From an uncultured Gammaproteobacteria bacterium (lineage in GTDB: Bacteria; Pseudomonadota; Gammaproteobacteria; JAURND01), in NCBI GenBank assembly GCA_963777715.1, contig CAVZRN010000010.1, forward strand, positions 22,211 to 86,210: 64,000 nucleotides of DNA, in the 5' to 3' direction. Positions 30,001 through 39,000 of this stretch are shown here, in pieces; within the stretch, counting starts at the first letter, position 1; each line of letters opens with the position of its first letter. Position numbers: made by a program.

Positions 30001-33000
30001 TGCCAGCCGCAGCGGGTGAACTGGGCTCATTGCCCTGATAGCGAGTCGTGGGCATCTGCACATTGATGGTTGGCGGCAACTCAATACCATACCGACCTGG
30101 GTCACGGATAACCGCGGCTAAGGCAACTAACTTTGGCACATAGGCTTCCGTTTCCGCCGCCAAGTGTAACTCCCAAAAACCGATACGTTTGTACCATTTC
30201 TTTTGGCGCTTGATCGCCTTATTGACGTTACCAGGCCCAGTATTATAGGCCGCCAGGGCTAACATCCAGTCATCTTGCATGGTTTTGTGCAAGTCATTCA
30301 GGAAATTTAATGCCGCTTCGGTGGAAGCTACGATATCCTTACGTTGATCAGAGCCAGGGTTACAGTCCAGGCCTAGATCGCGCGCAGTTCCCGGCATTAA
30401 CTGCCACCAGCCTACTGCCCCAACGGGGGAACGCGACTCTGGATCGCAGTCACTTTCCATCACCGGTAATAAGGCCAATTCTGCTGGCAAGCCATGTTTT
30501 TGCGTCTGCTTAAAGAAGTAATTAATATAGGGCGCTTCCTTCTTGAGCTGCTTATACAGATCTTTTTTATGCGCCTGCAATTTCGCAATTTGCGCCATCA
30601 CTTCGGGGTGGCTATCTTCATAATTAAACTGGAATTGCGTGCTCATGGCCGCCCAGACTGATGCTGAATAAGGCTGTAACTGCTCTTGCGGCCTTAATGG
30701 GATATGCACTGAGGCCGAGCGAGCAACTACCTGTGGCCTTAACGGTATCTTCACCTGTGCGGAAGGCGACGGTGAAGCGACACGAACAGCCGTTTGTAGG
30801 GGGGTCACTGGGGTGGATGTCGCCAACGCTGTACCGACGCCGCTGCTGGCGATTAATAAGATGTAACCATACACCACGCTGCTTAATTTACCATTTTTTA
30901 ATATTTTCATTCGGGCTATACTACAGAACCAATGACAATATGTCAAGCCTTTGAGTGAGTAGCATCTACCCATTTCTTTATTTCCAGCGCCAATTGTTGC
31001 ACATAGGGGGGTGTCAACAATGTTAAATGCGTGCCGGGAACTTCAACCACCTTGTTATAGTAGAGTACATTTTTGTTAAAAGAAGTGGCTGATTTAAACA
31101 GACCAATCGGGATTATCGGCAATTTTGGTGTTGTTTCATTATATTTTGCCAGCAATTGTAAATTAGACCGATATATGTGTACTTCGCGTAGAATCTGTTG
31201 TGCCAGTTGATTATTTTGCAAATAGTTTGTTAACAGGGGCAAGCTAGATTCTTCATCAGGTAATAATTTTGCGCCATGGGTTAATTGCGAATAGGTTTGT
31301 TCGGAGACATAATCCTTAGCGACTTGCAAGAATAGTTCAACCCAAGTGAAGTTGCCGGAAATACTCAGCTCAGCAGTAGCGGCGTGCAATTCATCAATCA
31401 GTAGTGCAGCAATAACTTTTTTATCGTGCGCCAGCAATTGATTGGCTATTTCTAAACTTAAGGAAGCGCCAAAGCTATAGCCGCCAACAAAATAAGGTCC
31501 ATTTGCTTGTGCGGTTTTAATAATATCAATGTAAGCAGCGGCCATTTCTTCTAAAGAACTATAGGTTGATAATTGCTGTAACCCGTATATTGGGTAGTCC
31601 CACGCCCTTGCTAATTCCAAGAAAATTTGCACATTACCACGTGCTGGGTGCATAAGAAAAAGCGGTATTTGTTTAGAATTGGTGGCGGCATTTAGTAATA
31701 CCAAGTTGGAAGGGAGGGCAGCACTTTTTGGCAAGGTGGCAATGTAATCTGCGAGTGCCTGTACTGTTTGATGATTAACCAGGGCGCTTAATGGAATGTC
31801 AACGGATAACTGTGTCGATAATGTATTGACTAGCTCGGCCGCTTGTAATGAGTCGATGCGCACTTGTTGGTGAATGGGCTTGTGAAGATCAAGCGTTTGA
31901 CGCGTTAAATTTTTTAATGCCAATGCAATTGCTTCTGTTATTGGTTGCTCTGGTTTTGTCGGCAATGACACTATTTCGGTCTGTGCTGTATCTGCGTACA
32001 AAATGGTGAGTTGTTCTTGTAAATACGCTTGTTTACACGGTGTACGGCGTAGTTTACGTGTGCGTGTGCGCGGTATGCTGCCAGTTTTCACCACTAAGAC
32101 GCTATGCGGGGCGACACCACAGATGTTGACAACAGCCCTACGTGCCTGTTTAACCATCTCTTCGTAAACGGCGCCAGGCTTAACGGCAGATTCTATAATT
32201 ATGATCAACTCTTCACCCAATTCTGCGTCAATTGCAACACCAATAGCAACGCAGCAATTTGCATAATTTTCGGGCAATGCTTGTTCTATGGCATATTCTA
32301 TATCCGTTGGAAATAAGTTATGACCACGTACAATAATTATTTCTTTTAGGCGACCACAGACAAATAATTCTCCTTTATGGAAAAAGCCTAAATCACCGGT
32401 GCGTAAATAGGTTTGTCCTGATGAACCGTCGAGTAACGTAGCATGGAAAGTATCCTGCGTACTGTGTTCTTTTTTCCAATAACCCAACGCCTTAGATGGA
32501 CTATCGACCCATATTTCACCAATCTCATCGTCTTCTACTATTGGTTGGCGATCCATTGTAACAATTTTAACAGTAACATTGGGTGGTGGTTGTCCGCAGC
32601 CGACTAATGGGTACTCTCCTGGACATATACGTCGCTGCAACTGTAGTGCTTCTCGGTCAATATGGTAATAACGGGAGCCCCCCAGGGTAATGCCTAACAC
32701 ATGTTCGGTCATGCCATAGGCGGGGCGCATAACATCGTCTTTCAACCCAGTGACAGCAAATGCTTGAATAAATTTATCGAGCAGGGCTGCGTTGATTGGT
32801 TCAGCGCCAAGCATGATTTTAGCTAAGGATCGCCAATCCCATTGTTCGCGTTGTCGATAAGTGGTTTTTTTCAATAGGTAATGTAAGCCAAAATTAGGCA
32901 TGGCGGTGAGCGTTACGTGGTAACGTGATAAACAGTCAGCAAATATTTTGGGGTCTTTCAAGAACGTCAATGGTGATAAGATAATGGTAGTAGCGCCAAC

Positions 33001-36000: not shown

Positions 36001-39000
36001 ACAAAATGTGCAGCTTAATGATGTCGAGAAGGGGTTTTTTTCAGAAACAGCACGCTTAAGAAAAAAAACCCATCTGGTATTGCTGCATGATCCAAGCGCT
36101 GTTTTTCCCACTCACACCAATGAGTGGCTGAATATAAGACCCGATATCCCTTATCATCACATGCGCAGAAATTCTACTACCGATATACGTCGTATCGCAC
36201 GTCTAATTACCGAACGTAGTATAGGATTAGTACTTGGTGGTGGTGGCGCCCGTGGTTTAGCGCATATCGGTGTGTACAAGGCGTTACAAGAGTTGGGGGT
36301 TGCAATTGATTGGGTGGGTGGCTCCAGTTCGGGCGCGGGTATCGCTGGATTTTGCGCCATGGGTTATGCGTCAGATATTATTGCGAAACAATTTACACGC
36401 TATTTTCTTAAGAATAAACGGCGCATCATGGATTACACCGTGCCTATTCTAGCCTTAACGAAGGGCATGGGGTTGGCGAAAAATTTAAAGGCGGCTTACA
36501 ACGAAGATTTATACGTAGAAGATCTGTGGAAAAATTTTTTCTGTATCGCGAGTAACCTAACCCAATCAAGAATAGAAATCATTCAACGTGGCTTATTATG
36601 GAAGGCGGTTCGCGCCAGCCTATCCTTGCCGGCAGTATTACCTCCTATCTCAGATGCGCGGGAAGATTTATTGGTGGACGGTGGAGTAATGAATAATTTA
36701 CCGGTAGATGTTATGCGTAATCTTCTTGGCAGTGGAAAAATAATTGCTGTACGTATTATGCCCAATCGAGAGATGCGAGGAAATGTGCCAGAAGGCAGTG
36801 CTTCCGGTTGGAGTTTATTGAGTCAATTATTAAATAAACGGCATCGCGATGAAAACACCACGATTCTTGAAGTCATCAGCAAGTCGATTGAACTATCCAG
36901 CGAGGATCGCAGTAAAGAAATGGCAGAACAGGCCGATTGCTGTATTGAAGTCACAGCCCCTGGCGTTAAACTGCTGAATGTGGAAGCGATTGACGATCTT
37001 ATCGAGGTCGGTTATCGCGCAACCATGGAAAAAGCCGACAACCTGCGCGGGACGCTTTTGTAGAATGCTGGTTTGTTAGCCCCGCCAATTGGGCTAATAC
37101 AGGAACCCAAAAATATAAAGAGGAATTTTCCGACCAAACCCGATTTCGATGCCATCAACAGCAAGATAACCATTTCCTTCACCCTTAATTTGACGAAAGT
37201 TTTTAGATTTTCCGCCAACCTCAAGGACGTACTGGCCATCAATGATAAAATCACCGTGATCGTATACATTTAATCGATGTGTGTGTGCAAGCTGGTTGAC
37301 AAAAAAAGTTTCACGCAGATTACCGATGTCACTGGTCAATTTTAAAATACCGTTGATGGCGCAGATCAGATTAGTATTCTCCAAATAAATCTTTCCCGGT
37401 TTACGAACTAATTTTAAACCTTTGGCATCATGATACACGTTGTTGAGCAATCCGGATTGCGCTAAATATTCTAAGCAAGTATAAATAATTTCCCGGGAAA
37501 CCTTGAGGTCTTTACTGATTCTATCGATGTTGGGAGTTAAACTTTTACTGGTTGATACTAACCAAAGCAATTTTTTCAAAATAAGAATAGTCGATTGCCG
37601 GATATTATGGACAATCGCAATATCTTCAAATAATACTTTTTCCACAATATTATTCACCTTGGATAAGTAATCCTGGCTGCTTTCCAGAAAGAATGGGAAG
37701 TAACCATGCAGCAGATAATCGCGAAAATGTTTAAGAATAGTCTGACCTTTAAAACTTTCGGCAATGACGGTGTGCTGAGAAAACACTTCATTTAAAGAAA
37801 CTTGAGGGGTTGCTATTTGCGCACCGAAAAACAAATATTCTCGAAAAGACAGTCCTTTAAGTTCGTAATAAACTGCTCTGCGAGATAAATCATATTTACT
37901 TTTCTTTAATTCTAATGCCGAACTGGCAGAAAATATAATCTGCTTGTTACGATAAGTATCCAGGATGTTTTTAAGCTCCAGCGCCCAGTTGGGATATTTA
38001 TGCACTTCGTCGATAAATAAAGCTTCCCCGCCAAATTGAAAAAATTCTTGTGCTATGGCAAATAATCCCCCACCTAACACATAGATGTTGTCGGCGGAAA
38101 TGTAAAGCGCCCTAGTGACGCTTTGATAGTGTTCCAGTAAAAATTGGCACATCAAAGTCGTCTTACCCACACCACGATTACCGAGGATACAGATTCCTTG
38201 CGCCTGCCAATTAATTTGCTGGTATAAGTAGCGCTGTTTGGTAATAGGTACGTTAACCATGACCAGCTTGTGGATGGCGATTAATGGCTCCAGGGATATT
38301 GTCATAGGCGTAACCAAAACATGTTATTATTTGTAATATACAGTTTACAATATTGAAAACATTTTGCCAAGTACAGTTTACAAATATCCCTCCAACCCGG
38401 TCACACAAATACTGACGGAAAAACTAACCGCTATGGGATTGGAGCAAGGGGGAGGGGAAAAGACTGTGCTGTGATCATTTTTTTCTATATTCCCCACCGC
38501 GATTGTCTTTGTCTTCTTCTATCTCCAGTGGTATTAAGCCAGGGAAAGTTGAAGTTGAGGAGATGCTTGCTTGAGCTGAAGGAGTTGACGGTGATGCGGT
38601 TGATGATGCAGAAGAACCGGAAAACAGAGTGGGACCGATCACTGTTAACTGACCTGTGTTTTGCGGTTTAACATCGGGTACGGTCTCTAATTTGCGCTGA
38701 ATTTGTTGTAGACATTCTACGCAGCGTGTATAGGTGTTGAATTCTACACTGCCAGGAGCTACAAACGGAATAGCGTCTTCATCTAATTTATCAAGAAAGA
38801 TATTAATAAGCGCCTGATAGTGCTCAGGTTTTTGCCAATACCTGCTAAACCAGGTAGTAAGCGCCTGGTCGCTCATGACGCCCTCCAGTGCGGAGCGCGC
38901 GTCTGACGTTAGTATTGATGACAGCGTTGGTAAATTGGCATTTTCTTTAAGCATACTCACAATACAGGATGAAACAGGGACATTATCCATCGCTGTCGGG

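Follow-up and report, generated by a model that had tools for sequence, protein, structure and literature searches.

A flavin domain fused to a fatty acyl-AMP ligase, carrier and thioesterase in an uncultured gammaproteobacterium: a candidate enzyme for oxidation of carrier-bound fatty acids

We analysed a stretch of 64,000 nucleotides (positions 22,211 to 86,210 of contig CAVZRN010000010.1, assembly GCA_963777715.1; hereafter the window) from an uncultured Gammaproteobacteria bacterium. The window encodes a megasynthase of 1382 amino acids, P0001 (30943-35091, minus strand), in which a flavin adenine dinucleotide (FAD)-binding domain of the amine-oxidase fold (FADox) precedes a fatty acyl-AMP ligase (FAAL), an acyl carrier protein (ACP) domain and a thioesterase (TE). 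We propose that P0001 activates a fatty acid, tethers it to its own carrier, oxidises it with the flavin domain, probably by desaturation, and releases it by hydrolysis within an oxylipin-type pathway. For this mechanism as a whole we estimate a probability of roughly 0.45.

The megasynthase is encoded by a single unbroken open reading frame that is transcribed divergently from the gene for a lipase of 605 amino acids (P0002; 35246-37063, plus strand), with a gap of 154 bp between the two genes (35092-35245, by direct reading). These frames and this gap are as an earlier note on the same DNA had described them, and hidden Markov models from Pfam and NCBIfam agree with its assignment of flavin amine-oxidase-like, FAAL, carrier and thioesterase domains to one protein. 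Pfam places NAD_binding_8/Amino_oxidase at residues 22-325 and beyond, AMP-binding at 475-872, a DIP2-like C-terminal subdomain at 916-1030, PP-binding at 1051-1117 and Thioesterase from residue 1143 onwards. Two orthologues, P0004 (1383 aa, 69% identity to P0001) and P0005 (1397 aa, 65%), have an identical four-domain order, and two further relatives, P0006 (2086 aa, 38%) and P0007 (1967 aa, 36%), carry a P0001-type core after an N-terminal extension of ~620 residues. Because the frame is unbroken and the four-domain order recurs in P0004 and P0005, we exclude that a frameshift has split off the N-terminal domain as a gene of its own, the possibility that the earlier note had itself raised; a mis-joined reading frame was ruled out on the same evidence. 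Invariant across the five aligned relatives are the GxGxxG motif (G27/G29/G32) and E50 of the FAD site, TSGST (S641), YGMTE (E796) and Lys1013 of the ligase, D1080 and S1081 of the carrier (IDSL), and Ser1206, Asp1233 and His1355 of the thioesterase. The catalytic motifs of all domains are intact in the predicted protein.

The adenylating domain (residues 468-1031; 31999-33690, minus strand) can be assigned to a class with confidence. The best NCBIfam models are those of FAALs (PRK05850, 309 bits, compared with ~151 bits for the best CoA-ligase model), and the best matches in the PDB are likewise FAALs, led by that of L. pneumophila (3KXW, E = 1e-90, 308 bits) and followed by 7R7E, FadD23 and FadD32; the true acyl-CoA ligase FACL 3G7S matches at just 2e-27 (99 bits). 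In an alignment with the two enzymes of CoA-ligase type that the source genome encodes, P0001 and its relatives contain an insertion of 15-16 residues (GGSRYYHIDREALQLQ) directly after YGMTE, at the position of the FAAL-specific insertion in the N-terminal subdomain, and this segment aligns with the matching one of 3kxw. Together, models, solved structures and insertion confirm the predicted FAAL class, and the domain appears to contain everything required to adenylate a free long-chain fatty acid.

The predicted acceptor of the acyl-AMP begins 20 residues beyond the FAAL in the same chain. This carrier domain (ACP/PCP; residues 1051-1117; 31741-31941, minus strand; Pfam PP-binding) has its phosphopantetheine site at Ser1081 within IDSL (codon 31849-31851), and one phosphopantetheinyl transferase of Sfp size is encoded in the source genome. 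The thioesterase (residues 1143-1375; 30967-31665, minus strand), with its serine in GYSFG, has as its closest solved structures the thioesterases of animal fatty acid synthases (E = 3e-16), followed by those of nonribosomal peptide synthetases (NRPSs) and polyketide synthases (PKSs). Animal fatty acid synthase thioesterases free long-chain acids hydrolytically.

The flavin domain (residues ~19-441; 33769-35037, minus strand) was placed by Pfam, by comparison with the PDB, by structure prediction and by phylogeny. By sequence, LkcE stands out as the sole clear relative of solved structure (E = 2.5e-10, full-length match), and the remaining PDB matches cover the dinucleotide-binding motif only. 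An AlphaFold2 model built on 40 sequences (predicted local distance difference test score of 89.4) retrieved all eight LkcE chains as the top Foldseek matches (E ~1e-24, TM 0.72), with the general monoamine oxidase (MAO) family at 1e-15. The modelled domain thus falls within the LkcE fold and subfamily. LkcE-type enzymes have a strictly conserved Glu64, the essential general base, and Arg326 (PMC6162330). In P0001, Glu64 aligns with Gly81, a glycine that is invariant in the clade of fused proteins described below, and Arg326 aligns with Tyr356, a position that varies among relatives (Y/N/H/W/M). As both residues are replaced, we rejected an LkcE-type amide oxidase/cyclase function for the flavin domain of P0001.

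A second point of reference is UfaD. UfaD (RSP1091), which takes part in furan fatty acid synthesis, was shown to be a fatty-acyl desaturase that depends on O2, and ufaD and ufaO (RSP1090) are neighbouring genes of one operon (PMC7380195). Standalone relatives of our flavin domain are encoded in the order FADox, DUF1365, cyclopropane fatty acid (CFA)-synthase-like in 6/6 related genomes checked. We take UfaO to be the DUF1365 protein, with a CFA-synthase gene after it, and on this gene order, rather than on the sequence of RSP1091, the standalone relatives would be of the UfaD type (COG2907-like). A profile of the flavin domain covers these standalone members over positions ~20-440 (E = 1e-32 to 1e-43), and in tblastn comparisons they are 21-26% identical to the P0001 domain. 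Neither a DUF1365 nor a CFA-synthase gene was found near P0001 in the window.

To place the fused architecture among its relatives, a profile of five flavin domains was searched against 1.84 billion representative proteins, which returned 6650 relatives at E <= 1e-3, of which 180 reached E <= 1e-30. The top ~25 matches (>190 bits) were almost all multidomain proteins; those below ~165 bits were standalone proteins of 410-460 aa and some CFA-synthase-like fusions. A maximum-likelihood tree of 63 flavin domains gave the same division: 26/26 fused domains formed one clade (SH-like support 0.997), outside which lay the standalone and CFA-synthase-linked domains. Within the clade, P0001, P0004 and P0005 nest with P0006, P0124 and P0007 (support 0.946), in which hydrolase and catalase-related domains precede the same core. 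In every clade member scanned, a carrier follows the flavin domain, either directly or beyond a FAAL (P0128 and P0138 were read by eye).

Domain scans of these proteins found the FADox-FAAL-ACP-TE core on its own in P0001, P0004, P0005, P0137 and the partial P0127. It is extended by a SnoaL-like tail in P0144 and, at the N-terminus, by an alpha/beta-hydrolase in P0125, by a hydrolase and a catalase-related domain in P0006, P0007 and P0124, by a catalase-related domain in P0131 and by an unassigned extension in P0132. Elsewhere in the clade the order runs catalase-related-FADox-ACP-TE-glutathione peroxidase (P0126), FAAL-P450-(cytochrome b5)-FADox-carrier-condensation (P0129, P0133), hydrolase-FAAL-P450-FADox-carrier-FSH1 hydrolase (P0130) or FAAL-FAAL-FADox-carrier with a hexapeptide/membrane tail (P0142), and P0123 contains two catalase-related-FADox-carrier units together with condensation and hexapeptide regions. 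A parallel case is P0011 of Tagetes erecta (2307 aa), which combines an amine-oxidase-fold domain, a FAAL, a carrier, a hexapeptide/membrane region and a catalase-related domain; its flavin domain is distant (24% identity over 276 residues), and we rejected it as a member of the clade. On a TARA Oceans contig (L003:1-26261), which may come from a bacterium or from a large virus, the gene for P0006 lies beside genes for a family-B DNA polymerase, a lipase-maturation-factor-like protein, a PlsC-type acyltransferase and ThiF/E2/TIR-type proteins.

The earlier note had called an oxidase N-terminal to a FAAL unusual. It is rare, but it is not unique: about 10 representatives share the core, and the wider carrier-fused clade surrounds them, so that the exhaustive profile search led us to reject the idea of a unique architecture. 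No P0001-like fusion was found in any of 61 related genomes, which carry separate FAALs and standalone flavin proteins only, and a pattern scan of one genome per species (185,579 species genomes) returned no P0001 relative. Our literature searches found no paper describing or characterising a member of the FADox-FAAL-ACP-TE architecture. We conclude that the architecture is rare and patchily distributed within a coherent and apparently uncharacterised family.

The haem domains fused to the flavin domain in several sister proteins bear on its likely chemistry. As the catalase-related region is weakly recognised by Pfam in some members, a profile was built from seven such regions. It matched the 33-kDa catalase-related protein 3E4W (3e-16), true catalases (1e-9) and coral allene oxide synthase (1e-3). 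The regions share an invariant His near the N-terminus and R-x3-Y near the C-terminus, which match the positions of the catalase distal His and proximal Tyr as judged by eye rather than by structure mapping. Proteins of the 3E4W type have a role with hydroperoxides. The catalase-related fusions thus point to fatty-acid hydroperoxide chemistry in the carrier-fused clade, and the fusion partners taken together (catalase-related haem, P450 and glutathione peroxidase domains) point to hydroperoxide or oxygenation chemistry.

On this evidence, the mechanism that we suggest is as follows. A free, probably unsaturated, long-chain acid would be adenylated by the FAAL domain and tethered in cis as a thioester on Ser1081 of the carrier. 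The N-terminal FAD domain would then oxidise the tethered chain with O2 as acceptor, most probably by dehydrogenation (desaturation), which would extend or conjugate the double-bond system as UfaD does on phospholipid-bound chains, and the thioesterase would free the modified acid by hydrolysis. A FAAL-ACP-TE protein alone would run a futile cycle of loading and hydrolysis, so the tethered chain is almost certainly what the fourth domain acts on; the carrier that follows the flavin domain across the clade points in the same direction. The closest functional precedents that the flavin superfamily offers, UfaD and, at a greater distance, the P. acnes isomerase, work on double-bond systems of lipids. 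That a chain is loaded by a FAAL and then modified on an ACP is itself an established logic, as in JamA/JamB/JamC (PMC10088813). The COX (cyclooxygenase)-like dioxygenase and the Pfa-type enzymes encoded nearby may act before or after P0001. Because the surrounding island holds a Pfa-type synthase and a COX-like dioxygenase, and because sister proteins fuse haem and hydrolase functions, the pathway of this accessory island, which is bracketed by insertion sequences (ISs), probably yields an oxidised, oxylipin-like fatty acid. The earlier note had read the protein as a module for lipid activation, oxidation and release, and the predicted domain logic behind that reading is upheld by the intact motifs, the FAAL class and the thioesterase resembling those of fatty acid synthases.

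Several points weigh against this mechanism. It draws on sequence, structure prediction and gene context. At 22-25% identity to UfaD-type proteins and with its place in a separate clade, the flavin domain could catalyse a different reaction; UfaD itself works on phospholipid-bound, not carrier-bound, chains, and the sole solved relative, LkcE, oxidises an amide. The FAAL-ACP portion could instead prime the neighbouring PKS. The source assembly is 67% complete, so further partners may exist.

The weakest step of the proposal concerns the origin of the substrate, which the divergently encoded patatin, gated by cyclic nucleoside monophosphate (cNMP), may supply as free fatty acid from phospholipid upon a cyclic-nucleotide signal. 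P0002 contains, all above the Pfam cut-offs, a cNMP_binding domain (residues 35-120; 35348-35605), an NTE_Ploop domain named for neuropathy target esterase (NTE; residues 146-316; 35681-36193) and a Patatin domain (residues 328-489; 36227-36712), with the motifs GGGARG at 332, GSSSG at 359 (Ser361) and DGG at 478. An orthologue with 70% identity occupies the same divergent position on L001, the contig that encodes P0004, where both outer flanks differ from those in the window and the patatin gene is read in the direction of the PKS. In place of the separate lipase of the P0001 lineage, sister proteins of P0001 contain a fused hydrolase. The suggestion of the earlier note that the acyl substrate comes from the patatin has weak support: it gains from the divergent pair of L001 and from a second patatin-flavoenzyme locus in the source genome, and loses from how narrowly the pairing is distributed. 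We consider functional coupling of the two proteins to have close to, and at best, an even chance.

The second locus lies on contig C6 of the source genome (G000 contig C6:56000-74000; L102: 5597-11484, minus strand) and encodes an acyltransferase (AT)-only protein (565 aa), a cNMP-patatin (595 aa), a flavoprotein of the amine-oxidase fold (455 aa) and a PKS-type dehydratase (283 aa). The cNMP-patatin is 26% identical to P0002, and among solved structures the flavoprotein is best matched by the P. acnes polyunsaturated fatty acid isomerase (E = 2.4e-18; 2BAB, PMC6162330). As judged from its predicted proteins, this locus does repeat the theme of lipase plus flavoenzyme. Separately, P0146 (772 aa) combines a flavin domain of the UfaD-like clade with what appear by sequence to be two cyclic-nucleotide-binding domains, which would link cNMP sensing to the flavin superfamily again. 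A gene for a kinase-AAA-GAF-nucleotidyl cyclase (~1755 aa) adjoins a block of Pfa-type genes, described below, in two genomes (C19:97194-110698 of the source genome and L015:1-13407, 76% identity), and two paralogues are encoded on contig C8. The cyclic nucleotide that the patatins sense may come from this kinase-GAF-nucleotidyl cyclase.

The best-surviving alternative is that the neighbourhood is incidental, and that the patatin is a housekeeping NTE-type lysophospholipase beside an unrelated accessory megasynthase. Proteins with the cNMP-NTE-patatin order are very common (at least 1874 clusters at E <= 1e-20, which carry the annotation of lysophospholipid hydrolase), and by its predicted domains P0002 is an ordinary member of this very large family. 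Two observations weigh here against our reading of the locus: three relatives of P0002 (43-45% identity) sit among unrelated housekeeping genes, and the patatin-megasynthase pairing is found in two related genomes only. The intergenic region falls on the same side. It contains one sigma-70-like match (plus strand, 35208-35237), promoter-like matches are not enriched over shuffled sequences, and a promoter and terminator scan of the 154 bp gave nothing above chance. A literature search on bacterial cNMP-patatins found nothing. Set against an incidental neighbourhood are the retention of the divergent pair on L001 despite its differing outer flanks, the position of the L001 patatin co-directional with and one gene apart from a PfaA-like PKS, and the paralogous cNMP-patatin between an AT gene and a fatty-acid-isomerase-like flavoenzyme in the source genome. 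We regard an incidental neighbourhood as a serious contender on which the odds are nonetheless adverse.

Beyond the patatin, the window contains a larger set of lipid genes. Pfam identifies genes for a PfaA-like ketosynthase (KS)-AT-ACP protein, a ketoreductase (KR)-dehydratase (DH) protein, a GGACT-like protein and a COX-like (animal-haem-peroxidase) protein (42732-50953, plus strand), and the distance from the patatin gene to the start of the PKS at 42732 is 5.67 kb, in keeping with the ~5.7 kb given in the earlier note. The space between is occupied by a 5.5-kb block in which two ATPase genes (AAA_14/DUF4143) flank a gene for a leucine-rich repeat (LRR) protein of 909 aa (37094-42601). Downstream of P0001 lies a gene for an MltD/SLT-type lytic transglycosylase (29882-30973) that is not conserved beside relatives. 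The segment from this SLT gene through megasynthase, patatin, LRR, PKS and COX-like genes is bracketed, from 28416 to ~55000, by two IS607-like copies: a decayed one on the left (28416-29797, plus strand; OrfB_IS605/TnpB fragments, with TnpB split into 29411-29797 and 28649-29395) and an intact one on the right, with resolvase and TnpB by Pfam (53175-54996, plus strand). The direct repeats 28416-28853 and 53175-54052 (91-95% identity) belong to these two copies.

The gene order in relatives lends strong support to the proposal of the earlier note that the megasynthase and PKS genes form one larger lipid locus. On L001, a PfaA-like KS-AT gene (78% identical to window 42732-45587), a gene of 261 aa and the cNMP-NTE-patatin gene are co-directional and are followed by the divergent megasynthase, with a PfaC/PfaD-type block a few kb further on. 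The 261-aa gene (L001:3222-4007), which separates the patatin from the PKS, has no Pfam match and gave no tblastn match in the source genome, where the ATPase-LRR-ATPase block occupies its position. Past a few unrelated genes on L001 comes the convergent block, which encodes a FadL-type transporter, PP2C, KS-chain length factor (CLF), a toxin-antitoxin pair, an enoyl reductase (NMO), an acyltransferase and a double FabA-type dehydratase, with the large kinase-GAF-nucleotidyl cyclase gene at its side. On L002, the dehydratase, acyltransferase and reductase genes of this block are found at 2-9 kb from the gene for P0005. In the source genome, the FadL-to-dehydratase block and the cyclase gene lie on another contig (C19:97194-110698, 61-79% identity). 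The Pfa-type parts (KS-AT-ACP/KR-DH, KS-CLF, NMO, DH-DH and acyltransferase) therefore occupy one region in L001/L015 and are split between contigs C10 (that of the window) and C19 in the source genome. A single island of ~35-40 kb, since rearranged in the source genome, looks like the original arrangement. L001 also encodes, 4 bp downstream of the megasynthase, an amine-oxidase/MCRA-like flavoprotein of 547 aa (L001:10462-12105), whose best PDB matches are weak (phytoene desaturase and L-amino acid oxidases) and of which no counterpart was found in the 67%-complete source genome.

This proximity gives rise to a second alternative, in which FAAL-ACP is a loading module that primes the PfaA-like KS-AT-ACP/KR-DH enzymes with a fatty-acyl starter, the thioesterase frees the product after elongation and the flavin domain contributes an accessory tailoring reaction. 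FAAL-ACP didomains commonly prime PKSs (PMC10088813), and the megasynthase is encoded near Pfa-type genes in the window, L001 and L002. On the other side, L003 and L004 carry the FADox-FAAL-ACP-TE core without a nearby PKS, a module that served for loading alone would not usually have a thioesterase in cis with its carrier, and in the source genome the PKS lies on the opposite strand with inserted genes between. We judge PKS loading to be unlikely.

Less probable again, and in our view improbable, is that the flavin domain is a true amine or amide oxidase, like LkcE and the MAO family, that acts on a carrier-built N-acyl or amino-lipid intermediate. The MAO-family fold with LkcE as best structural match, the amide-bond-forming condensation domains of clade members P0123, P0129 and P0133, and the GGACT-like gene of the locus would fit such a role. 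It is opposed by the Gly81 and Tyr356 replacements, by the lack in P0001 of a condensation or aminotransferase domain and of an adjacent amine-supplying gene, and by the nearest standalone relatives, which are lipid-chain enzymes. The least probable alternative, that the flavin domain mainly supplies H2O2 or electrons to a haem partner (fused catalase-related or P450 domains in sisters, the separate COX-like protein here) and does not perform the key chemistry, accounts for the position of flavin directly after a haem domain in many clade members, but we set it aside as very improbable, given that haem-less members such as P0001 and P0137 exist, that an oxidase turns over only with a substrate to oxidise, here presumably the tethered chain, and that the alternative itself is reached by inference only.

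Oxidation of the tethered chain by the flavin domain therefore remains the reading we prefer, and it can be extended to the whole clade. The carrier-fused flavin domains may represent an undescribed family of assembly-line fatty-acid oxidases, in which a FAAL loads the chain on a carrier, a UfaD/LkcE-related flavin domain and a haem partner (catalase-related, P450 or, at the present locus, the separate COX-like protein) remodel it there, and a thioesterase, condensation or hydrolase domain releases an oxylipin-like product. At the locus described here these functions would be split, with the patatin in place of the fused hydrolase and the COX-like protein in place of the fused catalase-related domain, and perhaps triggered by a cyclic nucleotide to convert membrane or host phospholipid into a signalling lipid. 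Taken jointly, this wider proposal is speculative, and we think it somewhat unlikely to hold in full. Neither the fused-type hydrolase nor the mini-catalase was found as a separate gene in the source genome.

To our knowledge, little has been learnt about how bacteria make oxidised fatty-acid signals, and the routes we know of use free acids or membrane lipids. If the proposal is correct, fatty-acid oxidation on a carrier would give oxylipin-like lipids a new enzymatic logic, and the carrier-fused family would provide new biocatalysts with which to modify fatty acids regioselectively. In a Legionellales-like bacterium associated with amoebae or another host, a cNMP-gated lipase that feeds the pathway would also make it directly testable that intracellular bacteria turn phospholipid into lipid mediators. 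P0001 is the simplest and cleanest clade member for expression and assay.

The remainder of the window is informative about the organism. The succinyl-CoA ligase alpha marker is closest to those of uncultured Gammaproteobacteria, Coxiellales and Legionella genomes (79-89% identity), and the window is rich in eukaryote-like repeat proteins, which fit an intracellular lifestyle. Its predicted proteins thus fit a Legionella/Coxiella-like bacterium of the intracellular type. One of them (14887-20061, 1724 aa) has many HEAT repeats, an OTU-like cysteine protease domain and ankyrin repeats, and is a eukaryote-like candidate effector. At 1500-2676, the gene for succinyl-CoA ligase beta appears to be split into two overlapping reading frames (1500-2330 and 2137-2676), which suggests a frameshift or an assembly error.

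Among characterised systems, the closest in logic is JamA/JamB/JamC of jamaicamide synthesis (FAAL, desaturase and ACP) and the related cyanobacterial FAAL-ACP systems, which share with the proposed mechanism adenylation, a dedicated carrier and desaturation of the tethered chain (PMC10088813). The Jam components are three separate proteins, JamB is a membrane di-iron desaturase and the chain is passed to a PKS/NRPS, whereas P0001 has a flavin domain and a hydrolytic thioesterase, all in a single chain. Olefin synthase (Ols) and enzymes of the FadD32-Pks13 type likewise begin with FAAL and carrier and end with a thioesterase; they have KS/AT extension modules in between, of which P0001 has none, having the flavin domain instead. 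In the catalase-related allene oxide synthase-lipoxygenase fusions (the coral enzyme and the cyanobacterial mini-catalase-LOX), a haem domain is found that is similar to the one preceding flavin in P0006, P0007, P0124, P0131, P0126 and P0123, whereas P0001 has no haem domain, the COX-like gene being separate in the locus, and no lipoxygenase. P0002 resembles the bacterial patatins of the PNPLA6 (neuropathy target esterase) type in its cNMP-binding, NTE P-loop-like and patatin domains and in its GGGxRG, GxSxG and DGG motifs; it differs from PNPLA6 in having one cNMP domain rather than three, and its siting beside a lipid megasynthase is unusual for the family.

For the flavin domain itself, LkcE, the lankacidin amide oxidase/Mannich macrocyclase (PDB 6F7L and others), is the only solved structure that is clearly closer than the general MAO family. 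Unlike P0001, LkcE is a standalone protein, and there is no lankacidin-type cluster at the P0001 locus. UfaD belongs to the same flavin amine-oxidase-fold superfamily, ranks by profile score as the closest family of standalone proteins and shares a lipid-chain substrate and O2 with the proposed reaction; it differs in being standalone, in its DUF1365/CFA-synthase neighbours and in its phospholipid-bound chains, and the P0001 domain falls in a separate clade. From these comparisons, P0001 is best described as a FAAL-carrier tether-and-tailor system with a built-in flavin domain of the UfaD/LkcE superfamily, within a small uncharacterised family.

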